The notes below the pieces were generated by a model, which had not been told where the DNA came from, did no database searches, and was given only the letters and a program-made list of their open reading frames with translations. From assembly GCA_017609985.1 (NCBI GenBank), contig JAFCCW010000008.1:1-47036 (forward strand): a DNA stretch of 47,036 nt. The letters are read 5' to 3'. A program made the translations under genes and the position numbers. How positions within the stretch are numbered: the stretch's first letter is position 1; each line of letters opens with the position of its first letter. Below, piece by piece: positions 15,659 to 38,207 of the stretch. This DNA is from Candidatus Iainarchaeum sp. Its GTDB lineage: Archaea > Iainarchaeota > Iainarchaeia > Iainarchaeales > JAFCCW01.

Positions 15659-15734
15659 CAGAACACCTGATAAAAAAAAGAAAAAGCAAAACTATTATAT
15701 ATGGAAAGCTATTATTATTCTAGGAAGTGCAGTT

Positions 15735-18700
15735 ATGGCTGGACAAAAATCTTTTTATCTATTTATCTGTCTAATTTTCTTATTCATTTCCACTGCTTTT
15801 TCAGCAGAGCTTGATGGTGATTGTGCGCCTGACTATAATTCCCTTCGCTCTTGCTCATCCAACTCTGACTGCTCGTTCAATAGCTCTCTTGGAATAAATG
15901 AAGAGCTTTGTGATGAAGGTCTTGGCAGATGTGTTGATTGTCAGTGCAGTCAGTGCAGTTTTTATGGTGCTTACACTGGCTGGCTGTGCATTGAATGCTG
16001 TGGAGACGGATTCTGCAATCCTGTTTCAGAGTCTTCAGTGAATTGCCCTGCTGACTGCGGTCTTGACCTGGAACTTGTTTCAGGCTCTGTTTACATAGTG
16101 TCTGAACAGTTGGCAAAAGTTGATGCTATTCTGTTCAACAACAGCACTCAGGGAGTCAAAACAGATGCTATTCTTTACCGAAAACTCAAGGACTCGGCAA
16201 GCTTTGCTGTTGAAGACCCTGTTAAATCAGGCTGGATTTACACTGTTGAAACAGAGGAATTCTTTCCAGGTGCAGAGGAAAAAGTTATTTCTTTTCAAAT
16301 AACTAGTGAAGTCGCAAAAAACAATCGTTTTCTCATATGGGTTAATTCACAGCAAAAGATTGTTGAAACAAACTATGAAAACAATCAGATTGAAGTAGGG
16401 GAAGAAGTTTGCGGAAACGGAATCGATGACGATCTTGACGGTTGCATTGATGAAGAATGTCAAATAGTTTCATGCGAAGTTGAAAGAAATCCCTTCACAG
16501 TTGGTTATCAAAAAAGTGGAAATCTTAAAGTAACAGTCAAGTCAAAAAACTCCTGCGACAACTATTCAATTGCTCTTGAAAATCCTAACGGAAATATTCC
16601 TTCTTTTCTCTCCGCTCCAAAGTCAGTGGACACTTGCACAGGAAACTGTTCCTCTACAAGTTATTCTTCTGGCTGCATTGGCGCAGGTGAATCAATACAG
16701 TTTTATCCTGGGTCCAAAGAAAAATGCTGTCCTGGCTTAAAGGAAATTCCAATTATTTATGGCTCTGGAGGGCTATGTGGACCTTCAGTTAACGGTGCCA
16801 TGCTTTGCTCTGACTGTGGAAACAACTTCTGTGAGGGCTGGGAGAACGAGTGCAATTGCGCAGAAGATTGCTCTATTAATGTGGCGCCAGCCAGTGAACT
16901 GCCAAGTCTTCTTTTCTCAAAAGAAAAAGCTCTTTTCAGCACCTGTGGAAATGGCTACTGTGAAGAAGGGGAAGATGGTAGGGAAATTCCCTGGGATTCA
17001 AGAGTTTACTGCCCTGAAGACTGTGAGAATGAAGAGACAGATGGTCAGTATTATGGCTCTGACAAATTCCAGGTCCTAGTGGAGGAAGAGCCGTGCAACG
17101 GAGGAACAGTCTCTGTTTCTGCCGGCTCTGCACCATTTACTTCAAGAGGAGAAGACTGCGGAAGGACTTCACAGGTTGCCCCAAGCACTTCCCACCAGAT
17201 TATGGCTGTTCCTGCTGCAGGTTATGAATTTGTTCGCTGGGAGCATGGCCTGCCCTCAAACCCGCATTGTTATATCTACGGCTCTGAAAGTGAAAATGCA
17301 ATAATCAAAATGAAGCCATATGAACTATACCATAATGCTTGTACAGTTAAAGCAATTTTCTCCCTGTCAGCCCCAAGCACTTATTCATTGTCAGTAAATG
17401 CGTCACCTTCTGCAGGGGGAAACGTTTCCGGCTCGGGAAGTGTTGTTGAGGGAGAGAGAAAGCAAATTGTTGCAATTCCTAAATCAGGTTACAGCTTTGC
17501 AGGGTGGACTTTGTCAGGCAGTTGCACTATCCTAAACGCTTCCAGCTCCAGAACAAGCGTTACTGTGAACGGCGACTGTACTGCCACAGCAAAATTTTCA
17601 GAAAACACTTATTCCTTGTCTGTTTCAGCATCGCCTTCTGCTGGAGGAACTGTTGAGGGCGAGTCTTCTGATGTTTTGCTTCGCAGCACAATGCCAATCA
17701 GCGCTTCCCCAAGCCCTGGGTACTCTTTTGTTGAATGGACAGATTTCGGAGGCTGCCTTGTTTCTGACAAGGATTCTGCTTCAACCACTGTTTTAGTCAA
17801 CGGAAACTGCATAGTTATAGCAAACTTTGAAAAAAAGTACAAGTTTACGATTTATCCGCATCCTTCTGGAACAGGAACTGTTTCCGGAACAGGTTTTTCC
17901 GGCTCTGGCGAGGCAAAGGTCTTGAATGATGCTCCTGAAAACCAGTGGGTTCAGATTTCAGCAAGCCCTTCTTCAGGCTACAAGTTTTTGTATTGGCAAC
18001 CAGGCTATAGCGAAATGGGTACAGTTTGTTCCCTAGAGAACGAATACAATTCTAATTTCTCCACTAACCGCGTAAAGGCTAGTGGCGAGCCAGGAAGCTG
18101 TACTTACAGAGCAGTGTTTGAAGAGTCCTGTTCTGAAAACTGTTCTGCAAATGGACAGTGCAACATTAACTGTGCTTCAAATCCTGGCTGTGAAACAGAT
18201 CCTGATTGCAGTGCAAGATATTCTTTGACTGTTCTCAAAACTCCTTCTGCAGGGGGGAGTGTCACGGGCACAGTTTCAAGTGTTTCTTTGGGTTCAACAC
18301 ATAATATTTCTGCGTCCCCTGATTCCAGTTTTTTGTTTGTGAGGTGGTCTTTGGATGGTGACTGCAGGCTTAATTCTGGCGCCACAATTGCTTCAAACAG
18401 TGTTACTGTGAACGGAGACTGTACTGCAACAGCTGAGTTTTCACGATGCGGGAGTATCTTCCTTCAAACAAGCCCAATAAGAACAGGAAGTGTTGTTTTT
18501 AACAATTCCAATGTTTCACAAATTTCCTGTCCCATCACTGTAGGTCAGCACAAGATTAACATTAGTCCAGATGAAGGATATTCAATTGTTGAGTTGACTG
18601 CGAATTCAAACACGGCTTCTGGAGATGGTTGTGTATTCTATGGCGGGGCAAGAGCAGGTGACCCAGATGTTTGCAGGTATTATAAACGTATTTATCTAAC

Positions 18701-21700
18701 TGACGATGGGAGGATTGCCTGGGAGCATGCTAACTACTTACAGAATTCATCTCTCTGCGGATGGAATAGTCCTGTCAAATATTCTGGCAGTGATTTTCCA
18801 AAAGACTCAACAGTTGGTTATTATGTGTGGATTCAAAAAACAAAGACAGAAGCTGATTGCACTTTTATAGCTTATCTTTCTAAGCCAGAAGAATACAGCC
18901 TTGAAGTTGTCGCATCACCCTCTGCAGGAGGAAGTGTTTCAGGCTCTGGAACTGTTGTTGAAGGAGCGCAAACTGCGATTGTAGCAGTTCCATCTTCAAA
19001 CTACTCATTCACTGGGTGGACTACTGAGGGAGACTGTTCTGTTCAGAATTCTTCTTTAACCAGAACAAGCGTTACTGTGAACGGAGACTGTACTGCTACT
19101 GCAAACTTTTCTGAAGATATCTCTGAAGTAAACCTTGTTCTTAGTGCATCACCATCAAACAGGGGAACTGTTGAGGGCGCAGGAGAATATGCTGTTAACT
19201 CAAGGCAATACATTGAAGTTTCTCCAGTTGAAGGCTTTGCTTTAGAACAATGGACTTGCTACGGCGACTGTTCTCTTGTTTCTGCAAATAATATTGCAAG
19301 AAACAATATTGACTTGGGTGAAACTGACTGCACCTGCATTGCTTATCTTGAAGAAATTGAACCAAGCTATAATTTCTCCGCAAGACCTAATCCGCAGGCA
19401 GGAGGAAATGCTTCAGTTTCAAATCCAGACCCTTCTGAATACGAACGCGTAATAGTTTCTGCTTCTTCAAACAGCGGATATAGTTTCGCAGGATGGAGCG
19501 AGCAGACAGGAAACTATGGTTGCTCTGTTTCACAATATGCTTCTTCGGACACAACAATAACAATTACTGCAAGAAGCGATTGTGAGTTTGTTGCAAACTT
19601 TGTCATGCAGTCATTGGATGATTGCTCTCTTGACTGCTCTGCAGACAACCAGTGCAATCGTGACTGCTACAATATGCCTCTCTGTTCACCAGACCCTGAC
19701 TGCTCTGAATGGTGCGACTTTGGACAGAATGAAATAGTTGAAGCTGGTCAAGCTTCTGACCTTGAAACAGATGAAGTTTATTGTTCCGGCCTTGGGTGTG
19801 AAATGTATCTCGAGGATGGAAGCAAGGGAATTGAAATTGAACCTGAACAGCTTTCAGGCTCTAATACAAGATATCATGTTTATCATGTTAATGCTTTCAC
19901 TGGAGAGAGAACTGAAATACAGAATTTTGTCAGCAGAAGTTATGGCCTTTCTTGTTTCCCAAGCGGAGACTATGCTTATTGTGGTTATATTTACAACATA
20001 AGAACTGGTGAAGTAATGGACAGAAGCCTTCCTTCAAACAGTGGTTCAGCAAATGATATCTCTGGCTCAAAGCTTTTGCTTGGTCCAATATTCAGTTATA
20101 ATGCTGGCTTTTCCGTGTACGATATTGAATCAATGGAATCAATTAACCTTGATGACTTGTTTGGCTCTCAAATCGATGAGTATATTGATGGCAGGTTTGG
20201 TTTTGGTGCTTCTTACATGTTTGTCCTGAGAGCCTGGACTTCAATTTCAGGAAAGTATGTTGTTGGATATGGAGACCATGGCGTAATTTTGGTCAAGGGA
20301 GATAATCTTCCTGAAAGTGAAGATACTGCATTTTTTGCAGGCTATGCAGGAAATGCTTCTTTCTTTATTTTGGTTGGAAATCTTGAAACAGGGGAAGTAA
20401 GGCTTGTTGAAACAAATCCTCTTCAGGTTTTCCTTATGTCCAGAGACGAATTTCCAGTCAGGTTTGATGGAGAAACAGTTTTCTTTAGGGCATCTGACAC
20501 AGCCAATTTCAATTCTCGTTATGACAAGTTTTACACTCTTGACATTTTCAACTGTTCTGATGACCCTGATCCAGATCCAGACCCGGACAAATCTCCCGGC
20601 ACTCCAAAGAATCTAACAACAAGCGCGGGCAGTATTGTTGTGAGCTGGGAGGCGCCAACAGAGTATACTGATGGCTCTCTTCTTAACATTGAAGACATTA
20701 ACAACTTTGATGTGTTTCGTTCAATCAAGGCAGGAGGCCCTTATACTCAAATAGGAATAACTTCCGGAGCTTCAGAAACAAGCTTTGTTGACTCTTCTGC
20801 TAAGTCAAACCAGACCTACTGCTATGTTGTCACAGCAATTGATGTGCTGGGTAAGGAAAGTGCTTACTCTGAAGAAGTCTGCACTGCAATCTGCGAGGAG
20901 GAAGAATGCGATAAAACATTTTTTGTTTCTGCAAACAATGTCAGAGCAATTGACAACCAGACTGAATGGAATGACCTTAAAATAAAAATTCAGGGAGACA
21001 ATGGAGTTGTTGCAGAATGTAGTTTTGATTTTCTGATTGGAGATGGTCCTGTTTGCATTCAGGAAATTTGTGGAAACGGACTGGATGATGATTGTGACGG
21101 TCTGATTGACTGGGCTGATTCTGATTGTGAAAACTGTGGAAATGGAGAGGATGATGAAGGAGAAACTTGCTTTAATTGTCCGCAGGACATGCCATTTGGG
21201 GAGTGTGAGGAACTATGCGGTGACGGAGTTGACAATGACGGTGACGGCTTTATTGATGAAGAATGCGAAATTTGTTTCAATCTCGTTGATGATGATGGGG
21301 ATGGCTTGATTGATGAGGGCTGCGGAGAACCAGATTGTTCAAATGGACTTGATGATGATGGTGACGGAGAAATAGATAATTGTCCTGACCTTGTGGTTGA
21401 GAATGTTTATCTTCATTCAACTGGTGTAAGACAGAATTCTTTCAATCTTGGATTTACTATTTCAAACAAGGGAAGAGCAATAGCAACAATTTTCAAGAAC
21501 TCTGTGTTTCGGGGAAATCCTGCTTTCGGAGATGAGCTTCAGTCAGAGGTTCTTTCGCTTGGAATCGGAGAATCAAAAACAATTACTCTTCCAATTACTC
21601 TTTTCTCTTTAAAGAACGATTTCAATGTTGTAGTCTTTGCTGATTCCACAGAATCTATTTCAGAACTTGACGAAGAAAATAACAAAAAAATATTTATTGT

Positions 21701-21965
21701 TAATGTTGGACAGGGCCCTGATCTTACTGTTGACAGATTTACTTCAGAAGAGGAGTGTGTTAATGAAACTGAAACATATACTTTGTTTGCAATTGTCAGA
21801 AACATTGGCACGAAAGGAATATTAGAAAGCTTTTACACTTCTTTATACAAGGATTCAATTCAGTCAACTCCTATTGCGGAGAGGTTAACTAATATGGGGG
21901 GTTTGGAAACTCAGACTCCTGGTGGCGGCGGGTTTGCAAATCCTGATTTGGGTGATGGTCAATGA
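15735..21965 (+). CDS. Giant secreted Cys-rich surface protein (~2076 aa): CARDB, ~9 divergent InlB-B-like repeats, FN3, MopE-like DDDCDG motifs; no C-terminal anchor
   Basis: ATG 15735 gives a signal peptide (MAGQKSFYLFICLIFLFISTAFS), with TTATATA ~35 nt upstream. Y.L.V.ASPSAGG.V...A.P..GY.F..W repeats, FN3 (PGTPKNL...SWEAP...YCYVVTAID), EICGNGLDDDCDGLID. Confidence 0.85.
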   Translation: MAGQKSFYLFICLIFLFISTAFSAELDGDCAPDYNSLRSCSSNSDCSFNSSLGINEELCDEGLGRCVDCQCSQCSFYGAYTGWLCIECCGDGFCNPVSESSVNCPADCGLDLELVSGSVYIVSEQLAKVDAILFNNSTQGVKTDAILYRKLKDSASFAVEDPVKSGWIYTVETEEFFPGAEEKVISFQITSEVAKNNRFLIWVNSQQKIVETNYENNQIEVGEEVCGNGIDDDLDGCIDEECQIVSCEVERNPFTVGYQKSGNLKVTVKSKNSCDNYSIALENPNGNIPSFLSAPKSVDTCTGNCSSTSYSSGCIGAGESIQFYPGSKEKCCPGLKEIPIIYGSGGLCGPSVNGAMLCSDCGNNFCEGWENECNCAEDCSINVAPASELPSLLFSKEKALFSTCGNGYCEEGEDGREIPWDSRVYCPEDCENEETDGQYYGSDKFQVLVEEEPCNGGTVSVSAGSAPFTSRGEDCGRTSQVAPSTSHQIMAVPAAGYEFVRWEHGLPSNPHCYIYGSESENAIIKMKPYELYHNACTVKAIFSLSAPSTYSLSVNASPSAGGNVSGSGSVVEGERKQIVAIPKSGYSFAGWTLSGSCTILNASSSRTSVTVNGDCTATAKFSENTYSLSVSASPSAGGTVEGESSDVLLRSTMPISASPSPGYSFVEWTDFGGCLVSDKDSASTTVLVNGNCIVIANFEKKYKFTIYPHPSGTGTVSGTGFSGSGEAKVLNDAPENQWVQISASPSSGYKFLYWQPGYSEMGTVCSLENEYNSNFSTNRVKASGEPGSCTYRAVFEESCSENCSANGQCNINCASNPGCETDPDCSARYSLTVLKTPSAGGSVTGTVSSVSLGSTHNISASPDSSFLFVRWSLDGDCRLNSGATIASNSVTVNGDCTATAEFSRCGSIFLQTSPIRTGSVVFNNSNVSQISCPITVGQHKINISPDEGYSIVELTANSNTASGDGCVFYGGARAGDPDVCRYYKRIYLTDDGRIAWEHANYLQNSSLCGWNSPVKYSGSDFPKDSTVGYYVWIQKTKTEADCTFIAYLSKPEEYSLEVVASPSAGGSVSGSGTVVEGAQTAIVAVPSSNYSFTGWTTEGDCSVQNSSLTRTSVTVNGDCTATANFSEDISEVNLVLSASPSNRGTVEGAGEYAVNSRQYIEVSPVEGFALEQWTCYGDCSLVSANNIARNNIDLGETDCTCIAYLEEIEPSYNFSARPNPQAGGNASVSNPDPSEYERVIVSASSNSGYSFAGWSEQTGNYGCSVSQYASSDTTITITARSDCEFVANFVMQSLDDCSLDCSADNQCNRDCYNMPLCSPDPDCSEWCDFGQNEIVEAGQASDLETDEVYCSGLGCEMYLEDGSKGIEIEPEQLSGSNTRYHVYHVNAFTGERTEIQNFVSRSYGLSCFPSGDYAYCGYIYNIRTGEVMDRSLPSNSGSANDISGSKLLLGPIFSYNAGFSVYDIESMESINLDDLFGSQIDEYIDGRFGFGASYMFVLRAWTSISGKYVVGYGDHGVILVKGDNLPESEDTAFFAGYAGNASFFILVGNLETGEVRLVETNPLQVFLMSRDEFPVRFDGETVFFRASDTANFNSRYDKFYTLDIFNCSDDPDPDPDPDKSPGTPKNLTTSAGSIVVSWEAPTEYTDGSLLNIEDINNFDVFRSIKAGGPYTQIGITSGASETSFVDSSAKSNQTYCYVVTAIDVLGKESAYSEEVCTAICEEEECDKTFFVSANNVRAIDNQTEWNDLKIKIQGDNGVVAECSFDFLIGDGPVCIQEICGNGLDDDCDGLIDWADSDCENCGNGEDDEGETCFNCPQDMPFGECEELCGDGVDNDGDGFIDEECEICFNLVDDDGDGLIDEGCGEPDCSNGLDDDGDGEIDNCPDLVVENVYLHSTGVRQNSFNLGFTISNKGRAIATIFKNSVFRGNPAFGDELQSEVLSLGIGESKTITLPITLFSLKNDFNVVVFADSTESISELDEENNKKIFIVNVGQGPDLTVDRFTSEEECVNETETYTLFAIVRNIGTKGILESFYTSLYKDSIQSTPIAERLTNMGGLETQTPGGGGFANPDLGDGQ
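17064..19605 (+). repeat. Array of ~9 disulfide-containing InlB-B-like (beta-grasp) repeats inside the giant protein
   Basis: Repeating ...GG.V.G...I.A.P..GY.F..W...C......V.GDCT.TA.F. Nucleotides 17548-17603 and 19060-19115 are nearly identical. Confidence 0.75.
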
Positions 21966-24900
21966 ATAAAAATCTTGTTTTGTTGTTTGTAGCGACCCTG
22001 TTGTTCTCTTCAATAGCCTATGCTGGTTGCATTGGAGGTGTGTGTGGAGAAATTTCCAACGCAAAAGTTTACTGGACTAATTCGCATGACCTTGATTCTT
22101 CTCTTCCTGAAAACATGCTTATTTATGATTCTACAACCCATGTTGACCCTGTTTCAATCCTGCCTGGTGCGAATGTTGTTGCAGACATTACTTATACAAA
22201 CACGGGAAACACAGTTATTTCTGGAAGAGCTCTTGCATACACTTCTGCAGGAGCTGGTTCTTTCTTGCCAGGGGAATCAAAAACTATTCGGAAGAGAATA
22301 AAAGTTGCTGGGCTTGGTTCTCTTTCAGAGCACACGCCTCCAGGAACATATAGATATGCTATTTATTTTTCTGTTGTCATAAATCAGCATCTTGACATCT
22401 TGTATATTCCTGTCAAGCTAGAAGAGAATGGGCGGGAATGGGCTAGTGTTTCTTCAAAACTTGAACTCGTGTCTTCTCCTGATGCAGAGGGATATTTCTC
22501 TATAGGGGATGAAGTCTGTTACAAGGCTTATTATAAAAACTCAGATTCCTCAACTGCAACAGTTGATGTAATGGATGGTTACTATAGCAATGGAGTGTTA
22601 AGGGGTTCATCTATCATAATTAACAACAGGCTTCTTAGGACTGAACGAGTCAGAAACAAAGACACTTCAATAATTGTTGAGCTTTCTCCTGGAGAAGAAG
22701 TCTGGCTTGAAAACGGAGATAGATGTTTTTCTCCCCAAGTCCCGGGCAATTACGTTCTTTCTGAATATCATAATGTTAGATACTCTGACGGGCAGTTTGG
22801 GCAGAGGGTGTCTCAATGGAAGCCTTTCACAACTTTTAAAGTGCGCGGTCCAATGGTGGTTCTGGAAGCAGGCTCTTCAAAGCTCAGATGGTTTTCAACT
22901 GGAATGCCTCTTGAAACAGTTGTCGGGATTAATGCAACTCACAGCACTGTTGACTTTGACGAATCTTTTCCGTTAATTCTTGAAGAGTATTTCTTTGACA
23001 GCAAAAACAATCTAAAGACTACGAGGCGTCACACTTTAACAGATATTCCTGCTGGAGAAAAAGTTCTTAGAACAATCACTGACAGTTTTGATCCCTCGGA
23101 AATAATTGGAATTCACCATGTTGTTATAATCGCAAAATATGATTCGGAGAGCAGTTTGTTTGACAACACTACTCTGGAGTCTGTTCAAGCAGATGTTTAT
23201 GGGGAAAGACACCGTGGTTCTTTTGACTATGTTTCAATGGATATCGGGGCTCCCAAAATACTTGAACTACAGGAAGATGGAACAATTGAGCTAAGAACAG
23301 GCCAGTCAAAGACAATCGGGATAACCTTAAGAAATGTTTTTACTGAAAATCATTCTTTTGCAGTTTCTGCTGACACTGATTTGATTTCTGTTGATTCTCC
23401 AAGGATTTCTCTCTCCGCTTCAACAAGCAGTAACTGGGTTGAGGATTCGTCTCATAAGATTACTGTTAGAGCTCCTGAAAATCCAGGGGATTATTCATTT
23501 ATTTTAACAGCCCAGTCAGAGGAAAATCCTGAAGTAAAGGATACTGAAATAATAAATGTAAGAGTAAGACCTGAAACATGTGAGTCTATAGGCGGCTTAG
23601 TGTGTGATGGAGACACTGTTTGTATTGGTCAGACAGTAATGTCTTACGGAAACGAGATTTGCTGTGTTGACGAAGGAGACCTTAAAGCAGCTTGCCAACC
23701 AAGAGAGGTTGTGGTTTCACTCCCTTTTCCAGCAAGTGTTGTTGATGACTTAACACAGTTCTGGGTTTGGGCTGATTCAACTGATGTGGTTAAGGAAATT
23801 TTGGAAATAAACAACACAAAGCAGTTTGCTTTAGAAAATAACAATGGAGAGATTTGCCCAAGGCCAATTCCTCTGGAAATTTGTGGAAACAATGTTGATG
23901 ATGATGGAGATGAATTGATTGATGAGAATCCGCCGTGCGGAACAGAGACCTGTGGGAATGGTTTGGTTGATGCTGGGGAAGACTGTGTTTCTTGTCCGCA
24001 GGACATGCCTTTTGGTTACTGCAAGGGCGGGCCATGCAATTATGAACTCTGCGGAAACAATATTGATGATGATTGTGATGGTCTGATTGACGAGGGGTGT
24101 GAACCAGAGTGCGGCAATGGAGCAGTTGATGTTGGTGAAAACTGTGAGACTTGTCCGCAGGACATGCCACCTGGCTACTGCGATGATGGCTGTGATGATG
24201 GCTGTTGTGACTACGAGCTTTGCGGAAACGAGTTAGATGATGATTGTGATGGTCTGATTGATGAGGGTTGTGGACTTTCCACTTGCGGTAACGGAGTAGT
24301 GGATCATGGAGAAGACTGTGATTTCTGTCCGCAGGATATGCCTTATGGCTTTTGTGACGAGTGCATTGGAGACTGCTGTTCAAGAGAGCTTTGCAGAAAC
24401 GGGATTGATGATGATTGTGATGGCTTGATAGATCCTGACCCGCCATGCTCTCTTGAGTGTGGAAATGGAATAGTTGATGAGGGGGAAACATGCGAGACCT
24501 GCCGGCAGGATATGCCTCCAGGATATTGTGAAGAGGAGCAGGAAATTTGCGGAGACCATGTTGATAACAATGACAATGGTTTCATTGATGAGGGTTGTGA
24601 ACCAAACCTGTTTGTTGACTCTGTTTCAGTTAATAGTACATTTTTTGAATCAGGCGACTTAAAGCTTGGAAGCTTTGATGTTGTTGTTTTGAATGATGGG
24701 GAAAATCTTTCAGGAGAATTCTCTCTTTCGCTTGAGCGTTCCGAGGGCAATGAAACTTTTTTGTATTTGAATGAAACTCTTCATCTTGGAAAAGTAGTTA
24801 TTCCTGCAGAGCAGAATGTAAGAAACTGGCTTGTGAAGCACAAAAATCTCAGAGTTCACAAGGACTCTCCTTATTCAACTTCTGAAACTGAGTGTGCTGA

Positions 24901-26281
24901 AATTGTTCTCAGAAAAACAACAGCTAACGGTCTTGAAACAGTCAGGGAAATTAATGGCTGTGATGATAATTCTGAAAATCCTTATGTTCCCGAGCGAAGA
25001 ATCAAATCGCGTGGAAAATATTCTGGAAAAGAGGAGGGCAATTCAAACAGTAATTCTGATCGAACCTATTCTGATTCTGGCGCTGATACTGATAACTTAA
25101 ATAATACCAATCTTGTGATTGGGGACCTTGAAGCTGGTTCCCTGCCTGGTTTTTCTCTCCTGTTTGCGCCTGTTAAAGAAGAGAAAGTTATTGCCCTTTT
25201 TGAGGAGGAGAATTCTTCAGACCAGGAAATTGTTTCATTGTTTTTCTGTGCTGATTCTGATAACTTGATTCCTGAGTCCAACGAGCTTGATAACTGCAAG
25301 CAGATTATTTTCAATACTGTGACTGGCGAAATTTGTGGAAACTGCATTGATGATGATGGTGATGGAGAAATAGAAGAAGGCTGTTCTGAAATTTGCGGAA
25401 ACAGCGTGGACGATGACTGTGATGGTTTGCTTGATGAAGGATGTGAAGAAGAATGCAATGGAGTGGATGATGACGGAGACGGTTTAGCTGATGAGAATCT
25501 GAAAAGACAGTGTGGTTCTTCAACTGTTGGTGTCTGTAGGTTTGGTTTTGAGAACTGTAAAATGGGTAACTGGGTTGATTGCAGTGCAGTGGAATCTGGA
25601 ATAGAATATTGTGATGGATTAGACGATGATTGTGATGGAGAAGTTGACAATGACTGTGAAGTGCTGGAACAATTGATTCTAGAGTATAAGGAGAAAGTTT
25701 ATGTCAATGAAAATCAGCTGGTTTCGGTTAAGAGTGCGATAACCGGTGAAAGACTTTCAGGAGTTGAAGTCCGCTTGGTGTCTCCATCCGGAGAATCATA
25801 TGCTGATGTTTCAAAAAAAGATGGTTTTGTGAAATTTAAGGTAAAGGAGTCTGGTGATTATCGCATTGTTGCAAGACTGAGCAATGAAATTGCAGAGGGT
25901 AACTTTGAAGGTCTTGCTCTAAGCACTACTGTACTGAACTTTTTCTCTTCTTCTGTGAAGAGTTTGTTTGGAGCTGGTGGTTTGGACTCGCCTTGGCTGT
26001 TTTTACTTTTAATACTGTTATCTGCAATAGCTGGAATCCTTGCTTACAAGCGTTCAAAAAAGTCTCTTGAAAAAGCAGGAATTGCGAGCACGAAGATTGA
26101 ACAAAGGAGAATCATTGCGGCTATATTTTCAGGAGCTATTTTCTTTTTTGTTCCAATTGCTGTTTTCAGGTTTTATGGAATTTCAGGAGGAATTTTTGTT
26201 GCTTTGCTTGAGATAGCGCTTGTTTTCTCTGTTGTTGCTTATTACAACAAGCGCAAGAGTTCCAGAAAAATTAAAATCTAA
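21962..26281 (+). CDS. Giant membrane-anchored Cys/Asp-rich surface protein (1439 aa): Ig-like domains, MopE-like and CPQDMP repeats, CARDB, C-terminal TMs
   Basis: GGTGA RBS and ATGA overlap. Signal peptide MNKNLVLLFVATLLFSSIAYA, many E.CGN..DDDCDG.IDEGC motifs, three C-terminal hydrophobic helices. Confidence 0.88.
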   Translation: MNKNLVLLFVATLLFSSIAYAGCIGGVCGEISNAKVYWTNSHDLDSSLPENMLIYDSTTHVDPVSILPGANVVADITYTNTGNTVISGRALAYTSAGAGSFLPGESKTIRKRIKVAGLGSLSEHTPPGTYRYAIYFSVVINQHLDILYIPVKLEENGREWASVSSKLELVSSPDAEGYFSIGDEVCYKAYYKNSDSSTATVDVMDGYYSNGVLRGSSIIINNRLLRTERVRNKDTSIIVELSPGEEVWLENGDRCFSPQVPGNYVLSEYHNVRYSDGQFGQRVSQWKPFTTFKVRGPMVVLEAGSSKLRWFSTGMPLETVVGINATHSTVDFDESFPLILEEYFFDSKNNLKTTRRHTLTDIPAGEKVLRTITDSFDPSEIIGIHHVVIIAKYDSESSLFDNTTLESVQADVYGERHRGSFDYVSMDIGAPKILELQEDGTIELRTGQSKTIGITLRNVFTENHSFAVSADTDLISVDSPRISLSASTSSNWVEDSSHKITVRAPENPGDYSFILTAQSEENPEVKDTEIINVRVRPETCESIGGLVCDGDTVCIGQTVMSYGNEICCVDEGDLKAACQPREVVVSLPFPASVVDDLTQFWVWADSTDVVKEILEINNTKQFALENNNGEICPRPIPLEICGNNVDDDGDELIDENPPCGTETCGNGLVDAGEDCVSCPQDMPFGYCKGGPCNYELCGNNIDDDCDGLIDEGCEPECGNGAVDVGENCETCPQDMPPGYCDDGCDDGCCDYELCGNELDDDCDGLIDEGCGLSTCGNGVVDHGEDCDFCPQDMPYGFCDECIGDCCSRELCRNGIDDDCDGLIDPDPPCSLECGNGIVDEGETCETCRQDMPPGYCEEEQEICGDHVDNNDNGFIDEGCEPNLFVDSVSVNSTFFESGDLKLGSFDVVVLNDGENLSGEFSLSLERSEGNETFLYLNETLHLGKVVIPAEQNVRNWLVKHKNLRVHKDSPYSTSETECAEIVLRKTTANGLETVREINGCDDNSENPYVPERRIKSRGKYSGKEEGNSNSNSDRTYSDSGADTDNLNNTNLVIGDLEAGSLPGFSLLFAPVKEEKVIALFEEENSSDQEIVSLFFCADSDNLIPESNELDNCKQIIFNTVTGEICGNCIDDDGDGEIEEGCSEICGNSVDDDCDGLLDEGCEEECNGVDDDGDGLADENLKRQCGSSTVGVCRFGFENCKMGNWVDCSAVESGIEYCDGLDDDCDGEVDNDCEVLEQLILEYKEKVYVNENQLVSVKSAITGERLSGVEVRLVSPSGESYADVSKKDGFVKFKVKESGDYRIVARLSNEIAEGNFEGLALSTTVLNFFSSSVKSLFGAGGLDSPWLFLLLILLSAIAGILAYKRSKKSLEKAGIASTKIEQRRIIAAIFSGAIFFFVPIAVFRFYGISGGIFVALLEIALVFSVVAYYNKRKSSRKIKI
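23876..24600 (+). repeat. Intragenic tandem array of ~160-180 bp units (MopE-like motif alternating with CGNG..D.GE.C..CPQDMP.G.C)
   Basis: Four CPQDMP/CRQDMP units with a conserved nucleotide core tgtccgcagga(c/t)atgcc; one further copy at ~21135-21207. Confidence 0.8.
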
Positions 26282-26535
26282 TTTTAAATTCAAAGAACTC
26301 ATTGTCTTGCCATCGTTGAATTTTGTTGCATTAGGCAGTAATATTTTGAAGGGAGAGTCCTTAAGTCCTTTTTTAAAAGGCTCTTTGGACAATTTTAGCG
26401 CATCGTTGATTGAAGACAAACAATGTTTCTTTGAAATAGGTGGGGGGCGGTGGTGGACGCAATTGGAATGTACTATGGGAATCGACTGCTAAATCATGTT
26501 TTTAAGGATTGCATTTCTATATTGTATTGGTTTCG

Positions 26536-27105
26536 ATGATTAAGCATGTTTTTGACTTTTTCTTCTCGCTTTTTTTAATAATTCTACTTTTTCCTGTTTT
26601 GGTTATAATCTCTTTGATTGTTTGGGTTGATTTTGGAGCGTTCCCAGTCTATGTTCAAAAAAGAATTGGAAAAAATGGACACGAATTCAATTTTCTGAAA
26701 TTCAGGACAATGCCTGCTGACTCTGAAAAAGAAGGTCCTGTGATTTCTTCAGAGCAGGATTCAAGACCGTCTCTTTTTGGAAGATTTTTAAGAAAAACTT
26801 TTCTTGATGAAATCCTTCAGTTGTTCAATGTTTTGTTTGGAGAAATGAGTGTTGTTGGTCCAAGACCTGAACGATTGTTTTTTCACAACAGGTTTTGTGA
26901 GGACATACCTGGTTGGGAAAAGCGTCTTTCAGTAAAGCCTGGAATGACTGGTCTTGCGCAGTTAAAAGGAATCGGGAGTCTTAAGCCGAAAGAAAAGCTT
27001 GCTCTTGACCTGAAATATATTCGCGAGCATTCTTTCTTCCTTGACTTGAAAATTATTTTAAAGACAGTATTTCTTTTCATTGGAAAATTTGTTGGAGGAA
27101 AATAA
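26536..27105 (+). CDS. Monotopic phosphoglycosyl transferase (bacterial sugar transferase, PglC/WcaJ C-terminal type)
   Basis: KHVFD, QKRIG..G, KFRTM, GRFLRKTFLDE, GEMSVVGPRPE, VKPGMTGLAQ, D..YI. Confidence 0.93.
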   Translation: MIKHVFDFFFSLFLIILLFPVLVIISLIVWVDFGAFPVYVQKRIGKNGHEFNFLKFRTMPADSEKEGPVISSEQDSRPSLFGRFLRKTFLDEILQLFNVLFGEMSVVGPRPERLFFHNRFCEDIPGWEKRLSVKPGMTGLAQLKGIGSLKPKEKLALDLKYIREHSFFLDLKIILKTVFLFIGKFVGGK

Positions 27106-27106
27106 G

Positions 27107-27868
27107 ATGTCTTCAGACAAACTATCTTCAATGGAAACAAATTCAAATGAAGTCTCTCCAACGGAAATATTTCCTGAGGTCTCAGTTATCTTTCCCTGTC
27201 TCAATGAACAGGGGTCTATTGCTGACTGTGTGGCTGACGCAAAAAAGTTTTTGTCTGAAATGAAACTTGAACACGAAGTAATTGTTGTTGATAATAATTC
27301 TATTGACAATTCTGCAACTCTTGCCGAGGCTGCAGGAGCAAAAGTTGTTCTTGAAGAAAATCGAGGCTATGGCAATGCTTATCTTGCGGGTTTGAAACAA
27401 GCCCGGGGAAAATTTATCATAATGGCTGACCCTGACAGAACATATGATTTTGCAGATATTCCTCTGTTTTTGGAGAAACTTCTGGGTGGTTCAAGCTTTG
27501 TTATTGGAAACAGGTTTTCCAAATGCAGTGAAAATATTCCTTTGCTGAGGCGTGCAGGGAATGTTTCTCTTAATGCTGTTTTTGACAGCTTGTTTGATGC
27601 TGGAATTATTGATCCTCACTGTGGATTCAGGGGAATAAAAAGAGAAGCTCTTAACAAGCTTGAGTTAAGTGAACAAGGTTTTCCATTTGCACTGGAGTTT
27701 TTGCTTGAATGCATTGACAAAAACATTTCAATTTCACAGATTGAAATAAACTATTCTGAAAGGATTGGCTCTTCAAAGCTTCATGCTCTTTTTGACGGTT
27801 TTCGGCATCTAAGGTTTATGGTGCTGAGAAAAGCAGGGCAAGCAGGAAAAGCTATTAAGCTTGGATAG
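27107..27868 (+). CDS. GT2 glycosyltransferase, polyprenol-phosphate mannose synthase-like
   Basis: VSVIFPCLNE, VVDNNSID, RGYGNA, MADPD.TY, GNRF, D.HCGFR. Confidence 0.92.
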   Translation: MSSDKLSSMETNSNEVSPTEIFPEVSVIFPCLNEQGSIADCVADAKKFLSEMKLEHEVIVVDNNSIDNSATLAEAAGAKVVLEENRGYGNAYLAGLKQARGKFIIMADPDRTYDFADIPLFLEKLLGGSSFVIGNRFSKCSENIPLLRRAGNVSLNAVFDSLFDAGIIDPHCGFRGIKREALNKLELSEQGFPFALEFLLECIDKNISISQIEINYSERIGSSKLHALFDGFRHLRFMVLRKAGQAGKAIKLG

Positions 27869-27880
27869 TAGTTCATATTT

Positions 27881-28828
27881 ATGGCTGTAACTGAATTTGA
27901 ATTTAGTGTTGTTGTTCCAACTTTAAACAATTGTTCAACTATTGGGCAGTGTGTTTCTTCTGTCAAGAAAGCACTTCTTTCTGATAATGCAGAAATAATT
28001 ATTGCGGACAGCGGAAGCTCTGATAACACAGTGGGGATTGCAAGAGAGCTTGGAGCACGAATAGTTTTTGCAAACAAGGGTGTTTCCGCAGGAAGAAATG
28101 CTGGCATCAAAGCAGCAGCTGGAAAAATAATTGTGCTTGTTGACTCTGATTGTTTTGTTAAAAAAAATCATTTTGTTTTGCTCAAGAAATTCTTTTCAGA
28201 AAATGAAGGAATTGTCGGAGGCAGTTACAATAATCTTCCGGAAAATAGGGTTTCTTTTGTTTGGAAAAAACTTTTTGAGGCAGTTCATCATCAAAAAACA
28301 CAAATTATTGGAAAAAATGCAGTTTACCGCATGCACGGCGGCAACCTCGCAATGAAGGGAAAACTTGCTTTATTCGATGAAAGCATTAACTGGGGTGCTG
28401 AAGACAGAGAATTTTTTCTTTCAGTTGCTCTGAATAATATCCCTATTTGTTTTGTTCCCTGGCTTGTGGTTAATCATAAAGTAAACGAGTCAGTTAGTTC
28501 AATTGCCAGAAAAAGGCTTTTGCTTACTTCGGGAGAACTTTTCTCGATTTCAAAGCACAGGGTTTTTCGGGATGTTCTTCGCTATGCGTTCTTTGCATTT
28601 GTTCCTTTGTTTCCGTTTGCTCTTTCACTTGCTTCTTCTTTGAGTATTCTGAATTCTTTTATTTTATTTTTCTCTTTTTTCCTGTTTTTTGCTCTTGCAT
28701 TCTTTATTCGAATTAGGGGAATTTCTTTTCCTGAATTTTTTGCTTTCTTTTCATTCAATGCTTTCTTGCTTGTCTTTTCAACTTATTTTGCTTTAGGTAA
28801 ACGAATTGTTTTTGGAAGGTGGTTTTAG
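27881..28828 (+). CDS. GT2 glycosyltransferase with C-terminal TM helices
   Basis: SVVVPTLN, IIADSGSSD, GRNAG, VDSD, GAED motifs. Confidence 0.9.
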   Translation: MAVTEFEFSVVVPTLNNCSTIGQCVSSVKKALLSDNAEIIIADSGSSDNTVGIARELGARIVFANKGVSAGRNAGIKAAAGKIIVLVDSDCFVKKNHFVLLKKFFSENEGIVGGSYNNLPENRVSFVWKKLFEAVHHQKTQIIGKNAVYRMHGGNLAMKGKLALFDESINWGAEDREFFLSVALNNIPICFVPWLVVNHKVNESVSSIARKRLLLTSGELFSISKHRVFRDVLRYAFFAFVPLFPFALSLASSLSILNSFILFFSFFLFFALAFFIRIRGISFPEFFAFFSFNAFLLVFSTYFALGKRIVFGRWF

Positions 28829-29832
28829 TGCCTGAAGTTTTTCTTTCTTTTTATGGGGTGAACCTGCATATTTCTGCTCCTTTAAAATTAATTCAGTGGA
28901 TAAAGCATGATTTTAGCTATTTTTTGTCAGACTCGCTGGATTCTTGTTCACTGGAATTCAAGCTCTTCAAAAAAGTTCCACCCTATAATATAATGAGTGG
29001 AGCAAGAGCAATCATTTACAGAGATGACTATATTGCTTATGAAAAAGAAGGCAAGTGTTTCATGGACTTTTTTGGTAAAGCTCTTTCTATTCAAAGCAGT
29101 GACAAGAGCAGAGTTGACATCTTTTCTCTTGACGAAGATTTTTTGTACGAGCGTTTTTATCTTGCCTTAATTGTGCTTGTAGGAGAACGTTTGGAGCGAA
29201 GAGGTTTGCACAGAATCCATGCTCTTGCAGTTTCAAAAAATCAGAAAGCAATGCTTTTAATGCTTCCAAGCGGTGGGGGAAAAACTACTTTAATGCTTGA
29301 ACTTCTCAATCAAGACCCTGGTGTCAAAATTCTTTCCGAGGACATGCCTCTTTTATCTGTCAATGGAACAGTGCATTCTTTTCCTCTTCGCATAGGTGTC
29401 AGAGCAAGTGCTTACAGTCTTAAGCTTCGTGGACGATTTTTAAGGCGTTTTAAGCGCTCGAACGAAGAGGACAAGATGCTTATTGACGTGTCTGCTTTTC
29501 GGAAAAGAATTTCAAGCCCTGTTCCCTCTGGCTCGATTGTCCTTGGAGAGCGAGTTTTCTCCACTCAAAGCTCTATTGCTCCAGTCTCGCGTCTGCGTGT
29601 TTTCTGGTCCCTTTTCAAGAACATTGTTTTTGGATTTGAAACACCCATGATTATTGCTTATTTTATGGAAGGAAATGCAAGAGACTTTATGCGCAAGCTA
29701 GCAATGTTTTTTTCACGCCTTGCGGTTTTTCTGGCTCTGCTCGCTAGCTCGAAATGCTTTGTTTTCAGGATGGGTAGAAATCAGAAGAAGAATTCAAAAA
29801 CGCTTGCTCGTTTCCTAGACAAGGTTCCATAG
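28819..29832 (+). CDS. HPr-kinase-related P-loop protein
   Basis: IHALAV...LLMLPSGGGKTT (Walker A preceded by the HprK-type HA motif) and LSED. Confidence 0.7.
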   Translation: MVLVPEVFLSFYGVNLHISAPLKLIQWIKHDFSYFLSDSLDSCSLEFKLFKKVPPYNIMSGARAIIYRDDYIAYEKEGKCFMDFFGKALSIQSSDKSRVDIFSLDEDFLYERFYLALIVLVGERLERRGLHRIHALAVSKNQKAMLLMLPSGGGKTTLMLELLNQDPGVKILSEDMPLLSVNGTVHSFPLRIGVRASAYSLKLRGRFLRRFKRSNEEDKMLIDVSAFRKRISSPVPSGSIVLGERVFSTQSSIAPVSRLRVFWSLFKNIVFGFETPMIIAYFMEGNARDFMRKLAMFFSRLAVFLALLASSKCFVFRMGRNQKKNSKTLARFLDKVP

Positions 29833-30345
29833 CCTTTTAACCTGCCGAACAAAGAAGCTTTCTTTAATTTCTTTCTTTTCAGCAAGCTTCCTATGAACTG
29901 CAATTGCTACAACTTCAATTATGAGCAGGTTTGCAACACCAAAAAAGGTCAGTCCGTTTCCAAAAGCAATTGCTGCAATAGCATATCCTACAATTGCAAT
30001 GCTTGTCGTTGCAAGAAAAAGGTTTGTTTTCTTTTGCCAGCTTGCCCTTGCCTTCTTTCTTAAATTTTTCATCAAATTAGAGCTTTTGTTGGATTGTACA
30101 AATCCATATCCTGTGTCTTCCCATATTCTGCTTGTGTAGTTTACAATCCTACTTTCTTTGAAGTAAGGCTTTTCCAGGACAGAAACCTTTTCAAGTTCTA
30201 GTTTTCCCTTTTCCATCAGCCTACTTGTTGCCTTTTTGGGAATGCTGTTCCTCACAGTCCTTTTTGCTGCTTCAAACAGGCTGCTGCTGCACAGGTTTTT
30301 AGTAATCCTTTTATAGATTCTGAGAAAAAAGCTGTTCTCATCCAT
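29815..30345 (-). CDS. Hypothetical membrane protein
   Basis: 176-aa ORF coupled to the upstream gene, two TM helices, basic, short ES.(I/F) repeats. Confidence 0.7.
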   Translation of the reverse strand: MDENSFFLRIYKRITKNLCSSSLFEAAKRTVRNSIPKKATSRLMEKGKLELEKVSVLEKPYFKESRIVNYTSRIWEDTGYGFVQSNKSSNLMKNLRKKARASWQKKTNLFLATTSIAIVGYAIAAIAFGNGLTFFGVANLLIIEVVAIAVHRKLAEKKEIKESFFVRQVKRLWNLV

Positions 30346-31804
30346 TCAAATCATTTATCCCATTGATTTCATGAATTCTTGCCCAAAAGTTTACTCCATT
30401 CATTTCAAGCAGAATTCTTGAATTCACTTTGACCCAGTTGCCCTTGAAGTAAAGCCTTCCCTGCTTGTCCTCTTCCATCCGGAGTATGAGATTCATTTTC
30501 ACATCCTTATTTCTTGGGTGGCTCTTTTTCAGGATGTTTCCTTCTTCTGTTGTCACTATAATCTCTGCATTCTCGACTGTTTCTGAAAGAATTTCTGCGA
30601 TAACTTCTTCTGTTTCAGGGTCTATTTCTTTGTCTCCCTCTGCAAACTTGTCCTCAATCCAAGGATATATGTTCTCTGCCACAGCAATAACTTTTTTTGA
30701 AATATCTGTTCTCGGATAAGCGTTCTCTGCAGAAAAAATGCTGTTTATCGATTCAATAGTGCCGCTTATGGCTGTGTTAGTAGTGCTGATGGTTATTGAA
30801 GACCCGCTTTTTATGAGCGAGCCCTTGTAAAACAGGTAACCTGCTTTTTGCTCTGCCCTGACTTTGACTGTGAGGTAAACTCTTCTGCTGTATTCAGAGT
30901 TGTATTCTTTTCTCACTCCGACAAGCTCTGCAATGACTTGTCCGTCAAAACCCATTTCAGTGTCGCCCTCTGAAATATTTTCAAGATATTCTGTAGAAAT
31001 GTTTCCCGCATCAATCAGAAGAACAAGCTCAACAGTATTTCTCTCAATCGCCCTGTTTTTTTCTTCCGAATTCTGAATTTCTAAAACTTCTGCTTTTAGG
31101 AATGTTGAGTCTAGGGGAATGAATACTTGGGAGCCAATGTTTGCGAGTTCGCTCCCAAAATAGTATTTTCCTCCTCTTTTTTCCAAGGGAACATCTGCTT
31201 TCAGGATAATATTGTATCTTGTCTGGGTAACCGGAACAAGTTCATAGTCTGTGATTTCCACTATTGCTCCTCCTAGTGTTTTTATTTTCCCATCTCTGAC
31301 CTGTCCAGTCAGCTTGTAGCTTATGTTATCCGCTTCAAGAAAGAGTATTTTTCTTTCAATGCTTGATTGATATCCTTCAATTTCTGAATCACTAATTGCA
31401 ATAACCTTTCCTTGGAACATAACGTTTTCAGTTTCAATTTCAATCTGGGAATTAATCTTGAGCTTTGACTCTTTGTAGATAATGTCGCCGAAAACCTGTT
31501 TTGCCAAAAGCTTCATGGTCACAATAACATCGCTTGAAGAAGACACAGAAGGCATGACATCAACTGCAACTATCTCGCCGATTTTTCTTCCCGAAATATT
31601 TCCGTGCTCTGCGTCTCCAACAGCAAGGTTTTCAATCACAAGAGTCGGCTGGTCCTCTGCTCTTATCTGTATATATGTCCAGTCTTCGGTGCCAAAAACA
31701 GTATAATATGTGAAAAGGCCTATCATCACAACTATTGCTATTATAAGCAGGTCAACAGCGTTCACTATTCCTAAAAATTTTCCCTTTTCATCCACAATTT
31801 CCAT
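30338..31804 (-). CDS. DUF4330-family membrane-anchored protein with four tandem domains
   Basis: MEIVDEKGKFLGIVNAVDLLII N-terminus followed by a TM and four ~100-aa repeats (..GD.E....IGEI...Y(Y/F)KG...K.(N/G)S.I...G.I..I). Confidence 0.75.
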   Translation of the reverse strand: MEIVDEKGKFLGIVNAVDLLIIAIVVMIGLFTYYTVFGTEDWTYIQIRAEDQPTLVIENLAVGDAEHGNISGRKIGEIVAVDVMPSVSSSSDVIVTMKLLAKQVFGDIIYKESKLKINSQIEIETENVMFQGKVIAISDSEIEGYQSSIERKILFLEADNISYKLTGQVRDGKIKTLGGAIVEITDYELVPVTQTRYNIILKADVPLEKRGGKYYFGSELANIGSQVFIPLDSTFLKAEVLEIQNSEEKNRAIERNTVELVLLIDAGNISTEYLENISEGDTEMGFDGQVIAELVGVRKEYNSEYSRRVYLTVKVRAEQKAGYLFYKGSLIKSGSSITISTTNTAISGTIESINSIFSAENAYPRTDISKKVIAVAENIYPWIEDKFAEGDKEIDPETEEVIAEILSETVENAEIIVTTEEGNILKKSHPRNKDVKMNLILRMEEDKQGRLYFKGNWVKVNSRILLEMNGVNFWARIHEINGINDLNG

Positions 31805-31915
31805 TTTTTCACTTCCATAATCCTGTTAAAAGTAGTTCATTTTCTTTAATAATCTTTTCCTTTTCTTTTTCACCAATATTTAAATAGCCCAAAAGCTTAT
31901 AGTTATTGGTTGAAA

Positions 31916-35197: not shown

Positions 35198-35222
35198 ACT
35201 GCTATAACGCAATTGTTATTTA

Positions 35223-37990: not shown

Positions 37991-38207
37991 TCTAATCCAA
38001 TACATCAAAGCAGGAAGTGGTTTAAATACATTCATGTGCCTTGTTTTTACTGGATGCTGGGCATCAGCTTAGTTGTGGAAAAGAGGGTTGCATTAGCCAT
38101 AAAAAAAGCAGCCTTGCAGACTGCAAAGGCTCTTCTTTTGAATAAATCACTTTTTCTCACAGGCAAGCTGTTTAAAAAATCTTTATGGCATTTTCTAATT
38201 GGTTTGA

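Follow-up and report, generated by a model that had tools for sequence, protein, structure and literature searches.

Complementary halves of one CARDB domain in two adjacent archaeal genes: a possible tether between two exported proteins

The window, by which we mean the whole stretch of 47,036 nucleotides analysed here, contains two consecutive genes on its forward strand between which the two halves of a CARDB domain are divided. Gene 1 closes shortly after a first half, and gene 2 carries an orphan second half far into its coding sequence. The features are as follows.

15735..21965, plus strand: gene 1, 2076 aa from the likely start at 15735 (the ORF opens at 15453)
21381..21707, plus strand: intact CARDB of gene 1, residues 1977-2085, Pfam 43.3 bits
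21714..21911, plus strand: residues 2088-2153 of gene 1, the split CARDB's first half, with 24.3 bits against positions 1-53 of the lineage profile
21756..21758, plus strand: Cys 2102, located in the first half's A-B loop, candidate inter-chain disulfide partner
21912..21965, plus strand: Gly-rich 17-residue tail and stop, closing gene 1 after the first half
21962..26281, plus strand: gene 2, membrane-anchored, 1439 aa, collinear with its homologue in genome G015 at 28-30% identity
21962..23566, plus strand: signal peptide and Ig-like module, residues 1-535, kin of stand-alone membrane proteins
23567..23695, plus strand: six-cysteine knot, residues 536-578, all six cysteines invariant between the window's genome (G000) and G015
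23702..23839, plus strand: residues 581-626 of gene 2, the split CARDB's orphan second half, with 22.1 bits against positions 69-108 of the lineage profile
23855..23857, plus strand: Cys 632, an extra cysteine past strand G, candidate partner of Cys 2102
24602..25315, plus strand: second CARDB of gene 2, split in cis, first half at residues 881-932 and second half at residues 1080-1118
25964..26248, plus strand: C-terminal membrane segments of gene 2, residues 1335-1429, from a hydropathy scan, conserved in G015 and G021

A hydropathy scan of the whole gene 1 protein found the N-terminal signal peptide as its sole hydrophobic segment and no membrane anchor. The Pfam matches of this protein comprise six Flg_new_2 stretches and one CARDB, the intact domain, which scores 80.1 bits over positions 1-110 of a lineage profile that has 111 positions and was built from 37 intact CARDB domains. 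The first half that follows ends at a Gly turn ahead of strand E and matches the Pfam CARDB model (PF07705) over positions 2-48 with 18.4 bits, under the gathering score of 22.7 bits. A Shine-Dalgarno-like GGTGA for gene 2 lies at 21951-21955 inside the codons of the gene 1 tail, and in the ATGA at 21962-21965 the gene 1 stop (21963-21965) overlaps the gene 2 ATG. Pfam, profile and hydropathy thus agree with an earlier note on this DNA, which had described gene 1 as ending in the N-terminal half of a CARDB plus a 17-aa tail without an anchor; the stop, GGTGA, ATGA overlap, new signal peptide and Ig-like domains that it had placed between the halves were all found.

According to the hydropathy scan, the gene 2 protein has a signal peptide, and three or four membrane segments towards its C-terminus. 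By sequence, its first 575 residues group with stand-alone membrane proteins of a separate family (P0005, P0006, P0008; L017, L019, L032). The orphan second half comes after a complete Ig-like domain and the six-cysteine knot, and begins at residue 581, where the earlier note had put it at about 580. The knot also occurs ahead of a membrane helix in P0017 and ahead of an intact CARDB in G020. In the second CARDB of gene 2, about 147 low-complexity residues are inserted in the same loop in which the trans split falls, and the G015 homologue likewise has a cis-split second CARDB (residues 967-1016 and 1174-1207).

We compared the three first-half tails and three orphan second halves at hand with the lineage profile. 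The tails cover positions 1-53, 2-46 and 3-43, and the orphan second halves positions 69-108, 66-108 and 71-108, so that first halves reach no further than 53 and second halves begin at 66-71, without overlap. Against the 101 positions of Pfam CARDB, the cover is 2-48 for the first half and 72-99 for the second. Scored alone with that model, the window's first half reaches the 18.4 bits given above, another tail 14.1 bits and the tail on contig C23 of the window's genome nothing; among the second halves, the one on contig C18 of the same genome scores 24.2 bits, and those of the window and G015 have no match. In all three tails the stop lies 0-17 residues past the same Gly turn, and the second halves keep the CARDB end motif. 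The complementary profile cover, together with the same cut in a second genome, exceeds chance. The in-frame join of base 21910 to base 23701, to which the earlier note had pointed, is indeed open and in frame, but it carries no evidential weight, because a suitable choice of cut will bring any two frames into register.

The second genome, G015, is a separately assembled member of the same order (two contigs, 97% complete) and has the same gene pair cut in the same loop. Its gene 1 ends with an intact CARDB and then a first half, its gene 2 has the orphan second half at residue 580, and its junction has GGAGG where the window has GGTGA, with stop and start overlapping by 1 nt. The two pairs are about 30% identical, and an adjacent ORF common to both genomes is 40% identical. 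As judged from sequence divergence, the split is old, because the CTP synthases of G015 and the window's genome are only 48% identical; those of other genomes of the order reach 72%. The gene pair is present in 2 of 215 genomes of the class. In G015, a single strong tail and a single strong orphan half exist, and the genes that carry them are adjacent.

The window's genome contains further half-domains. On C23, the gene with a first half at its end is broken further upstream by a TAA in frame, within a 17-nt tandem repeat, and by a frameshift, and therefore a second pair may be decaying. The orphan second half on C18 stands directly behind a signal peptide without a knot, and so its missing strands cannot come from a knot. 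The two upstream Ig-like genes of the window (2411-4429 and 4414-6564) each end in a membrane helix of their own, with no half-domain at the boundary.

Cysteines distinguish the split domains from intact ones. A cysteine at the column of Cys 2102 is present in all three first-half tails and in none of the 37 intact domains, while a second cysteine ahead of the DDD-motif cysteine is found in all three orphan second halves and in none of 11 intact CARDB-to-DDD junctions. On the basis of these columns, an inter-chain disulfide between Cys 2102 and Cys 632 possibly locks the joint. The mature split-system proteins all have an odd cysteine count (99, 65, 79, 75 and 11; five of five), but this parity argument is weak, because the two unsplit proteins of G021 are also odd in raw counts (61 and 29) and turn even only after exclusion of one membrane-helix cysteine, an adjustment made post hoc.

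As suggested in the earlier note, the two halves were co-folded. The score was 0.76 in each of three runs, from input alignments of only two rows, compared with 0.01 for the best of three controls; 116 of 157 solved complexes attain such a score, as do 2 of 215 mismatched pairs. The pLDDT with the partner is 72-73, and at least 90% of the contacts agree between runs. With unrelated partners, pLDDT falls to 37 for the first-half tail and to 48-52 for the second-half chain. The tightest predicted contacts, with low expected error, are those between strands B and E and between strands C and F, and the interface also includes knot residues 18-23, 39 and 42. The pass may reflect just two parts of a familiar fold, as split-domain halves tend to pass by their likeness to solved beta-sandwiches; a sequence search found no solved relative. 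A single-chain model of gene 2 residues 428-660 had a mean pLDDT of 41.8 from a two-row alignment and is uninformative, because pLDDT is poor even across the complete Ig domain.

Building on the observed anatomy of the locus, its conservation and the sequence-level complementarity of the halves, we infer with a probability of roughly 60% that the two products bind through a half-domain joint, possibly locked by a disulfide, which tethers the gene 1 product to the gene 2 product. The gene 1 product would be exported by its own signal peptide, without an anchor and with strands A to C'/D as its last folded element. The gene 2 product would be exported separately and held in the membrane by its C-terminal helices, offering strands E to G after an N-terminal Ig-like arm and the cysteine knot. 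Outside the cell, the halves would complete one CARDB beta-sandwich by B-E and C-F strand pairing, and a disulfide between one cysteine of each half would then probably lock the joint. Together, the two chains would make up a branched, adhesin-like assembly of about 3500 residues, with the N-terminal arm of gene 2 projecting from the joint. The reassembly in trans and tethering that the earlier note had proposed gain support from the halves and cut site conserved at about 30% identity, the correlated cysteines, the predicted co-fold and the orphan half on C18.

Regarding the origin, the 5' part of a separate surface-protein gene may have entered an insertion-tolerant loop of a once-continuous giant gene. 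Relatives in G021 have unsplit CARDB arrays, followed by DDD-type cysteine motifs and then a C-terminal anchor as in gene 2. The ancestral gene broken in two that the earlier note had envisaged fits these unsplit arrays with the same anchor, as well as the membership of the N-terminal part of gene 2 in a separate family.

Could the half-domains instead be an inert scar, left when an old insertion broke a giant gene whose two pieces now work separately, the halves being leftovers that never meet? The rarity of the pair and the upstream disruption of the C23 paralogue are in keeping with such a history. However, at the divergence seen between the CTP synthases an unselected C-terminal tail would be expected to be shortened or scrambled, and yet all three tails keep profile-matching strands and the same end turn, the second halves retain the CARDB end motif and each half has gained a cysteine absent from intact relatives; we therefore consider a scar unlikely. 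The halves might also be functional with other partners, for instance tail with tail, a tail with the C18 protein, or the second half of gene 2 on its own cysteine knot, and both the C18 protein, as another orphan second half of the window's genome, and the knot residues in the co-fold interface could be read in this way. Such pairings appear quite unlikely, given that the one strong tail and one strong orphan half of G015 are in adjacent genes, that P0017 and G020 have the knot without a second half, and C18 a second half without the knot, and that the second-half chain loses confidence with unrelated partners.

Removal of the 1790 bases between the halves at the DNA or RNA level, or their bypass by recoding, would give one continuous protein. 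The open join described above would allow it, although such a join can always be arranged. The two boundaries share no direct or inverted repeat, GC is flat (0.385-0.415), the signal peptide and Ig-like domains encoded between them are conserved in G015, and tail lengths vary between genomes. Excision, which the earlier note had offered as an alternative, is therefore highly improbable. No intein-type family is among the Pfam matches; a split intein with protein trans-splicing was considered and rejected, as no Hint/intein family matches either protein at E up to 0.1. A chimeric join of repeated CARDB-containing genes could be suspected in a metagenome-assembled genome that is a 37-contig draft, the more so as the exact proteins lie on one contig only in a large collection. 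The independently assembled G015, however, has the same pair with both break points at the same residues, and thus the two-gene split is real and a misassembly hardly credible.

Known systems share parts of this arrangement. Split Ig-like stalk domains are described for the RTX adhesins FrhA and MpIBP, in which loop-inserted domains project sideways from the adhesin axis (accessible parts of PMC10865825 and PMC12077191). At the sequence level, the second CARDB of gene 2 is a cis-split domain like those in the accessible accounts. By the same accounts RTX adhesins are continuous chains; the trans-split CARDB, in contrast, is interrupted by a stop, a new start and a new signal peptide, and the domain must therefore be rebuilt from two polypeptides if it is to be complete. 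With the stop at 21963-21965 and the new start intervening, we rejected the RTX-type cis split for this domain, and only the second CARDB of gene 2 belongs to that type.

In chaperone-usher pili, donor-strand complementation completes an incomplete Ig-like fold. Donor-strand complementation is also described for archaeal threads and cannulae (PMC9715654; bioRxiv 10.1101/2024.12.30.630787, in their accessible parts). As in the systems portrayed there, an incomplete Ig-like fold would be completed outside the cell by strands of another chain. In those systems a single strand is donated, identical or similar subunits polymerise and a chaperone is often needed, whereas the proposed CARDB joint would have three or four strands per side in a one-to-one heterodimer, with no filament implied. 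Assignment to the donor-strand pilus type was rejected, since each side contributes about half a domain, and free first and second halves do not occur together in the gene 1 protein or in the gene 2 protein.

Ig-like domains that complement from fragments have been engineered, such as SpyTag/SpyCatcher and split FN3, where the pieces reassemble and a covalent lock is possible. These tags are man-made and have an isopeptide lock, whereas the CARDB split occurs in nature and would be locked by a disulfide. Split protein genes are known from Nanoarchaeota (PMC3655853, accessible part). On the basis of that part, the window presents a similar case of a small-genome archaeon in which a gene is broken in two and both parts are retained. 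The known split proteins of Nanoarchaeota are cytoplasmic enzymes, unlike the domain of about 100 residues in a surface protein that is here cut in one loop. In the literature searched, we found no cellular surface protein described as having an Ig-like domain naturally split in trans.

Could a domain shared by two exported proteins be a simple way of anchoring one of them without an enzyme? To our knowledge, how the giant surface proteins of such small-genome archaea attach to the cell is mostly unexplained. If the proposed joint between gene 1 and gene 2 products forms, it would provide such an anchor and would be a natural counterpart of engineered split-domain tags. A broader idea, which we put forward tentatively and regard as doubtful, is that the half-CARDB is a reusable, disulfide-locked snap fastener, with first-half plugs on anchorless giant adhesins and second-half sockets on varied anchor proteins (gene 2, and the small C18 protein with its socket directly past a signal or anchor segment). 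A cell with such fasteners could hang, exchange or release surface proteins without a sorting enzyme.

Searches with gene 2 returned little beyond the window. A word-indexed protein search gave 5400 candidates with the query itself as sole match, and a profile search across 1.84 billion representatives found, at E<=0.001, 14 proteins, of which only the query spans knot and second half. None of 609 pattern matches was confirmed in a genome contig scan, nor any of 78 in one metagenome scan; five of 566 were confirmed in another. By matched query residues, these five lie at the end of the second half and the DDD motif, or at the DDD motif alone; one of them, L060, proved unrelated on inspection. 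For the C18 protein, 12 proteins at E<=0.001 were found among 1266 candidates of 152-485 aa, and all except itself cover just 26-37% of the query; 10 of these 11 have the PF11617 metal-binding motif, while PF18998 is found in P0020. Genes 1 and 2 also have lineage-specific Cys-rich repeats in common, which within a genome are 51-54% identical in G000 and 37-42% identical over 235-334 aa in G015, and across genomes about 30% identical.

The two genes lie head to tail, and the ATG of gene 2 overlaps the stop codon of gene 1 (ATGA), with a GGTGA 7 bases upstream of this ATG, within the glycine codons of the gene 1 tail. The relevant features are:

15453-21965, forward strand: open reading frame of gene 1; its probable start is at 15735, and a signal peptide comes next
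21962-26281, forward strand: gene 2
Gene 2 residues 22-535: Ig-like domains
Gene 2 residues 536-578: six-cysteine knot
Gene 2 from residue 581: stretch resembling the second half of a CARDB domain, with DDD-type cysteine motifs next

The Pfam matches of gene 1 comprise six Flg_new_2 stretches and one CARDB domain (residues 1978-2079, 43.3 bits). This intact domain is followed by about 66 residues resembling the first half of a CARDB, by 17 further residues and by the stop. Gene 2 has no Pfam match above the cut-off. According to a hydropathy scan, the signal is the sole hydrophobic segment of gene 1, while gene 2 has, besides its signal peptide, three or four membrane segments at the C-terminal end. 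The coordinates and details of the earlier note (half-CARDB end, 17-residue tail, ATGA, GGTGA and orphan C-half) are confirmed. The frame is indeed open when base 21910 is joined to 23701, as the note had observed, but this is worthless as evidence because a frame-keeping cut can always be chosen. The window is the entire contig C15; the draft genome to which it belongs comprises 1.16 Mb in 37 contigs, is 86.6% complete and contains a full-length archaeal SSU rRNA (1398 bits).

Among 60 related genomes searched, G015 alone, a genome of the same order (2 contigs, 97% complete), matches both genes, and there too they are adjacent. Its gene 1 homologue (885 aa) has a C-terminal intact CARDB plus a first half, with the stop a few residues past the same glycine turn. 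The gene 2 homologue (1535 aa) has a 1-nt stop/start overlap with GGAGG ahead, a signal peptide, Ig-like domains, the same six-cysteine knot and an orphan second half at residue 580; it is collinear with gene 2 at 28-30% identity. This separately found pair excludes a misassembly of the window pair. The full N-terminal part of gene 2 and strong tail matches occur in the window's genome and G015 only (196 genomes of the order, 215 of the class). The knot only, or the CARDB-end/DDD portion only, is matched in a further 32 of the 196; of these, G021 and five genomes from a single genus were inspected, and their CARDBs are intact at that place. G015 is not a close relative, since its CTP synthase, a single marker matched in 52 of 61 genomes, is 48% identical to that of the window, compared to up to 72% elsewhere in the order. 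A homologue of the neighbouring ORF at 12493-14040 adjoins the G015 pair in the same relative orientation (40% identity). The split therefore either is older than a deep divergence or was transferred as a unit, both halves having been retained together either way.

The window's genome holds a second set. Contig C23 encodes a shorter gene 1 paralogue that ends with an intact CARDB and a first-half tail, which also has the A-B loop cysteine of the other tails; the next gene is unrelated. Contig C18 encodes a protein with an orphan second half:

C18:17739-18572 (L046:1740-2573 in the fetched stretch): C18 protein, 277 aa
C23:89466-89533 (L045:1467-1534 in the fetched stretch): 17-nt unit in four copies, 98% matches, in the 5' part of the gene 1 paralogue
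Near C23:90480: further frameshift in a GGGAAATGGG run

The C18 protein consists of an N-terminal hydrophobic segment and, immediately after it, the second half with an extra cysteine and DDD motifs. The hydropathy scan showed no C-terminal helix, and no relative of this layout was found among the proteins of 152-485 aa searched. Because this second half stands without a knot, it is independent of it. In total, tails and orphan second halves number two each in the window's genome and one each in G015. The upstream part of the C23 gene is disrupted by an in-frame TAA in the 17-nt repeat and, about 1 kb beyond it, by the frameshift. This may reflect a pseudogene or an assembly error, and the repeat could also be a contingency-type switch.

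The Pfam CARDB model matched two of the three first-half tails below the cut-off (positions 2-48, 18.4 bits; 2-34, 14.1 bits) and the third not at all. One of the three second halves scored above the cut-off (positions 72-99, 24.2 bits), and those of the window and G015 had no match. As Pfam alone was equivocal, we built a dedicated profile of 111 positions from 37 intact domains, taken from the fetched loci of related genomes and the window's own genome. The first halves cover positions 1-53 (24.3 bits), 2-46 (18.5 bits) and, weakly, 3-43 (4.3 bits), and the second halves 69-108 (22.1 bits), 66-108 (23.7 bits) and 71-108 (38.2 bits). The pieces are therefore complementary, without overlap, and on this profile the split site is the loop and turn preceding strand E.

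All three tails end 0-17 residues past the same turn, which we count as a sign of selection because a functionless C-terminal tail could be truncated anywhere. In the A-B loop each carries a cysteine; none of the 37 intact domains has one within three columns of this position. An extra cysteine follows each orphan second half, a few residues ahead of the first cysteine of the DDD motif; at intact CARDB-to-DDD junctions the motif cysteine stands alone in 11/11 of the set. As the number of cysteines is even both in the knot (6) and in the DDD motif (2), the tail cysteine and the extra one have no local partner. In each of the five mature proteins that belong to the system, the cysteine count is odd (99, 65, 79, 75 and 11, with guessed signal cleavage sites). 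Odd parity would be a weak sign of selection: the raw counts of the two unsplit G021 relatives are also odd (61, 29), and even only with one membrane-helix cysteine set aside.

We then consider the co-folding of the two halves, a check proposed in the earlier note. The modelled chains were a 105-aa piece of gene 2 (knot and second half) and the 85-aa first-half tail, with a 2-row alignment for each. The score was 0.76 in 3/3 runs, versus 0.01 for the best of three controls. This mark is attained by 116/157 solved complexes and 2/215 mismatched pairs, but split-domain halves tend to pass through resemblance to known folds, and the model therefore shows fit as one domain, not binding. The partner pLDDT was 72-73, with at least 90% of contacts common between runs; with unrelated partners it was 37 for the tail and 48-52 for the gene 2 piece. 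The lowest-error contacts join tail strand B with gene 2 strand E and tail strand C with gene 2 strand F, as in an Ig-like sandwich, and both candidate cysteines are among the predicted interface residues. In the model, the tail and the gene 2 piece thus fit together as one domain.

Could the intervening DNA instead be excised, as the earlier note had also suggested, or bypassed? This finds no support: the boundaries lack paired repeats, composition is flat across the region, and the DNA between the halves encodes a conserved secreted module. The halves may also be functionless leftovers, an inert scar, but the conserved position of the stop and the cysteines apparently paired across the halves make this less likely. 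Pairing of the halves with other partners, for example the C18 protein, is possible.

For the domain divided between two chains, the earlier note had proposed a once-continuous gene split by an inserted 'end plus new start' cassette. Two G021 proteins combine, in a single chain, CARDB arrays, DDD motifs and the gene 2-type C-terminal module with membrane helices:

L058 (G021:C1): unsplit giant protein, 1756 aa
L059 (G021:C6): unsplit giant protein, 2150 aa

Their C-terminal anchors are near-identical. Both proteins contain four strong CARDBs, of which the third is lengthened by a loop insert. One G021 CARDB has an insert of about 24 residues with two cysteines in the split-site loop, and of the intact domains it is this one that matches the tail profile best. 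The second CARDB of gene 2 (window 24602-25315) is split in cis in the same loop by about 150 low-complexity, charged, Gly/Asn-rich residues, as is that of the G015 homologue (L014, residues 967-1207), so that this feature is conserved in both genomes. The N-terminal part of gene 2 resembles stand-alone membrane proteins, each with a CARDB-like domain and a helix of its own at the end; elsewhere the knot precedes a helix (in the protein P0017) or an intact CARDB (in the genome G020). The simplest history, as we infer it, starts from a continuous giant gene whose CARDB loop tolerated insertions and received the 5' part of a gene of this stand-alone kind, including its start and signal peptide; nested insertion with later fission is another possible route.

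Cys-rich repeats specific to each lineage are common to genes 1 and 2, with 51-54% identity over 107-115 aa in the window's genome and 37-42% over 235-334 aa in G015; matches across genomes are at about 30%. The arrays on either side of the split (window 20950-21380 and 23880-24600) are of one type within the genome, and the type differs between the window's genome and G015 (both genes of L014). The two genes therefore seem to have kept evolving as one array, which suggests exchange or parallel expansion between them.

In donor-strand complementation, an Ig-like fold is completed by another chain; there one strand is donated and polymers form, whereas the window pair would share the fold half-and-half between two proteins. 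The cis counterpart is known from RTX adhesins, where inserted domains project to the side from a split Ig-like domain (PMC10865825); the window split lies between two chains. In the literature searched, we found no such domain that is naturally divided half-and-half between two exported proteins of a cell. The principle is known, and the variant seen in the sequences of these two genomes appears new.

Downstream, window 26509-39323 is a series of genes for glycan synthesis. They encode a sugar transferase, several glycosyltransferases of families 1, 2 and 4, and two Wzy/O-antigen-ligase-like proteins, and their products may glycosylate the surface proteins. At 7304-8494 and 9795-11000, a homocysteine-biosynthesis enzyme (PF01837, 501.7 bits) is encoded near an S-adenosylmethionine synthetase. 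The synthetase matches all three S-AdoMet_synt Pfam domains, a type generally found in bacteria, not archaea.
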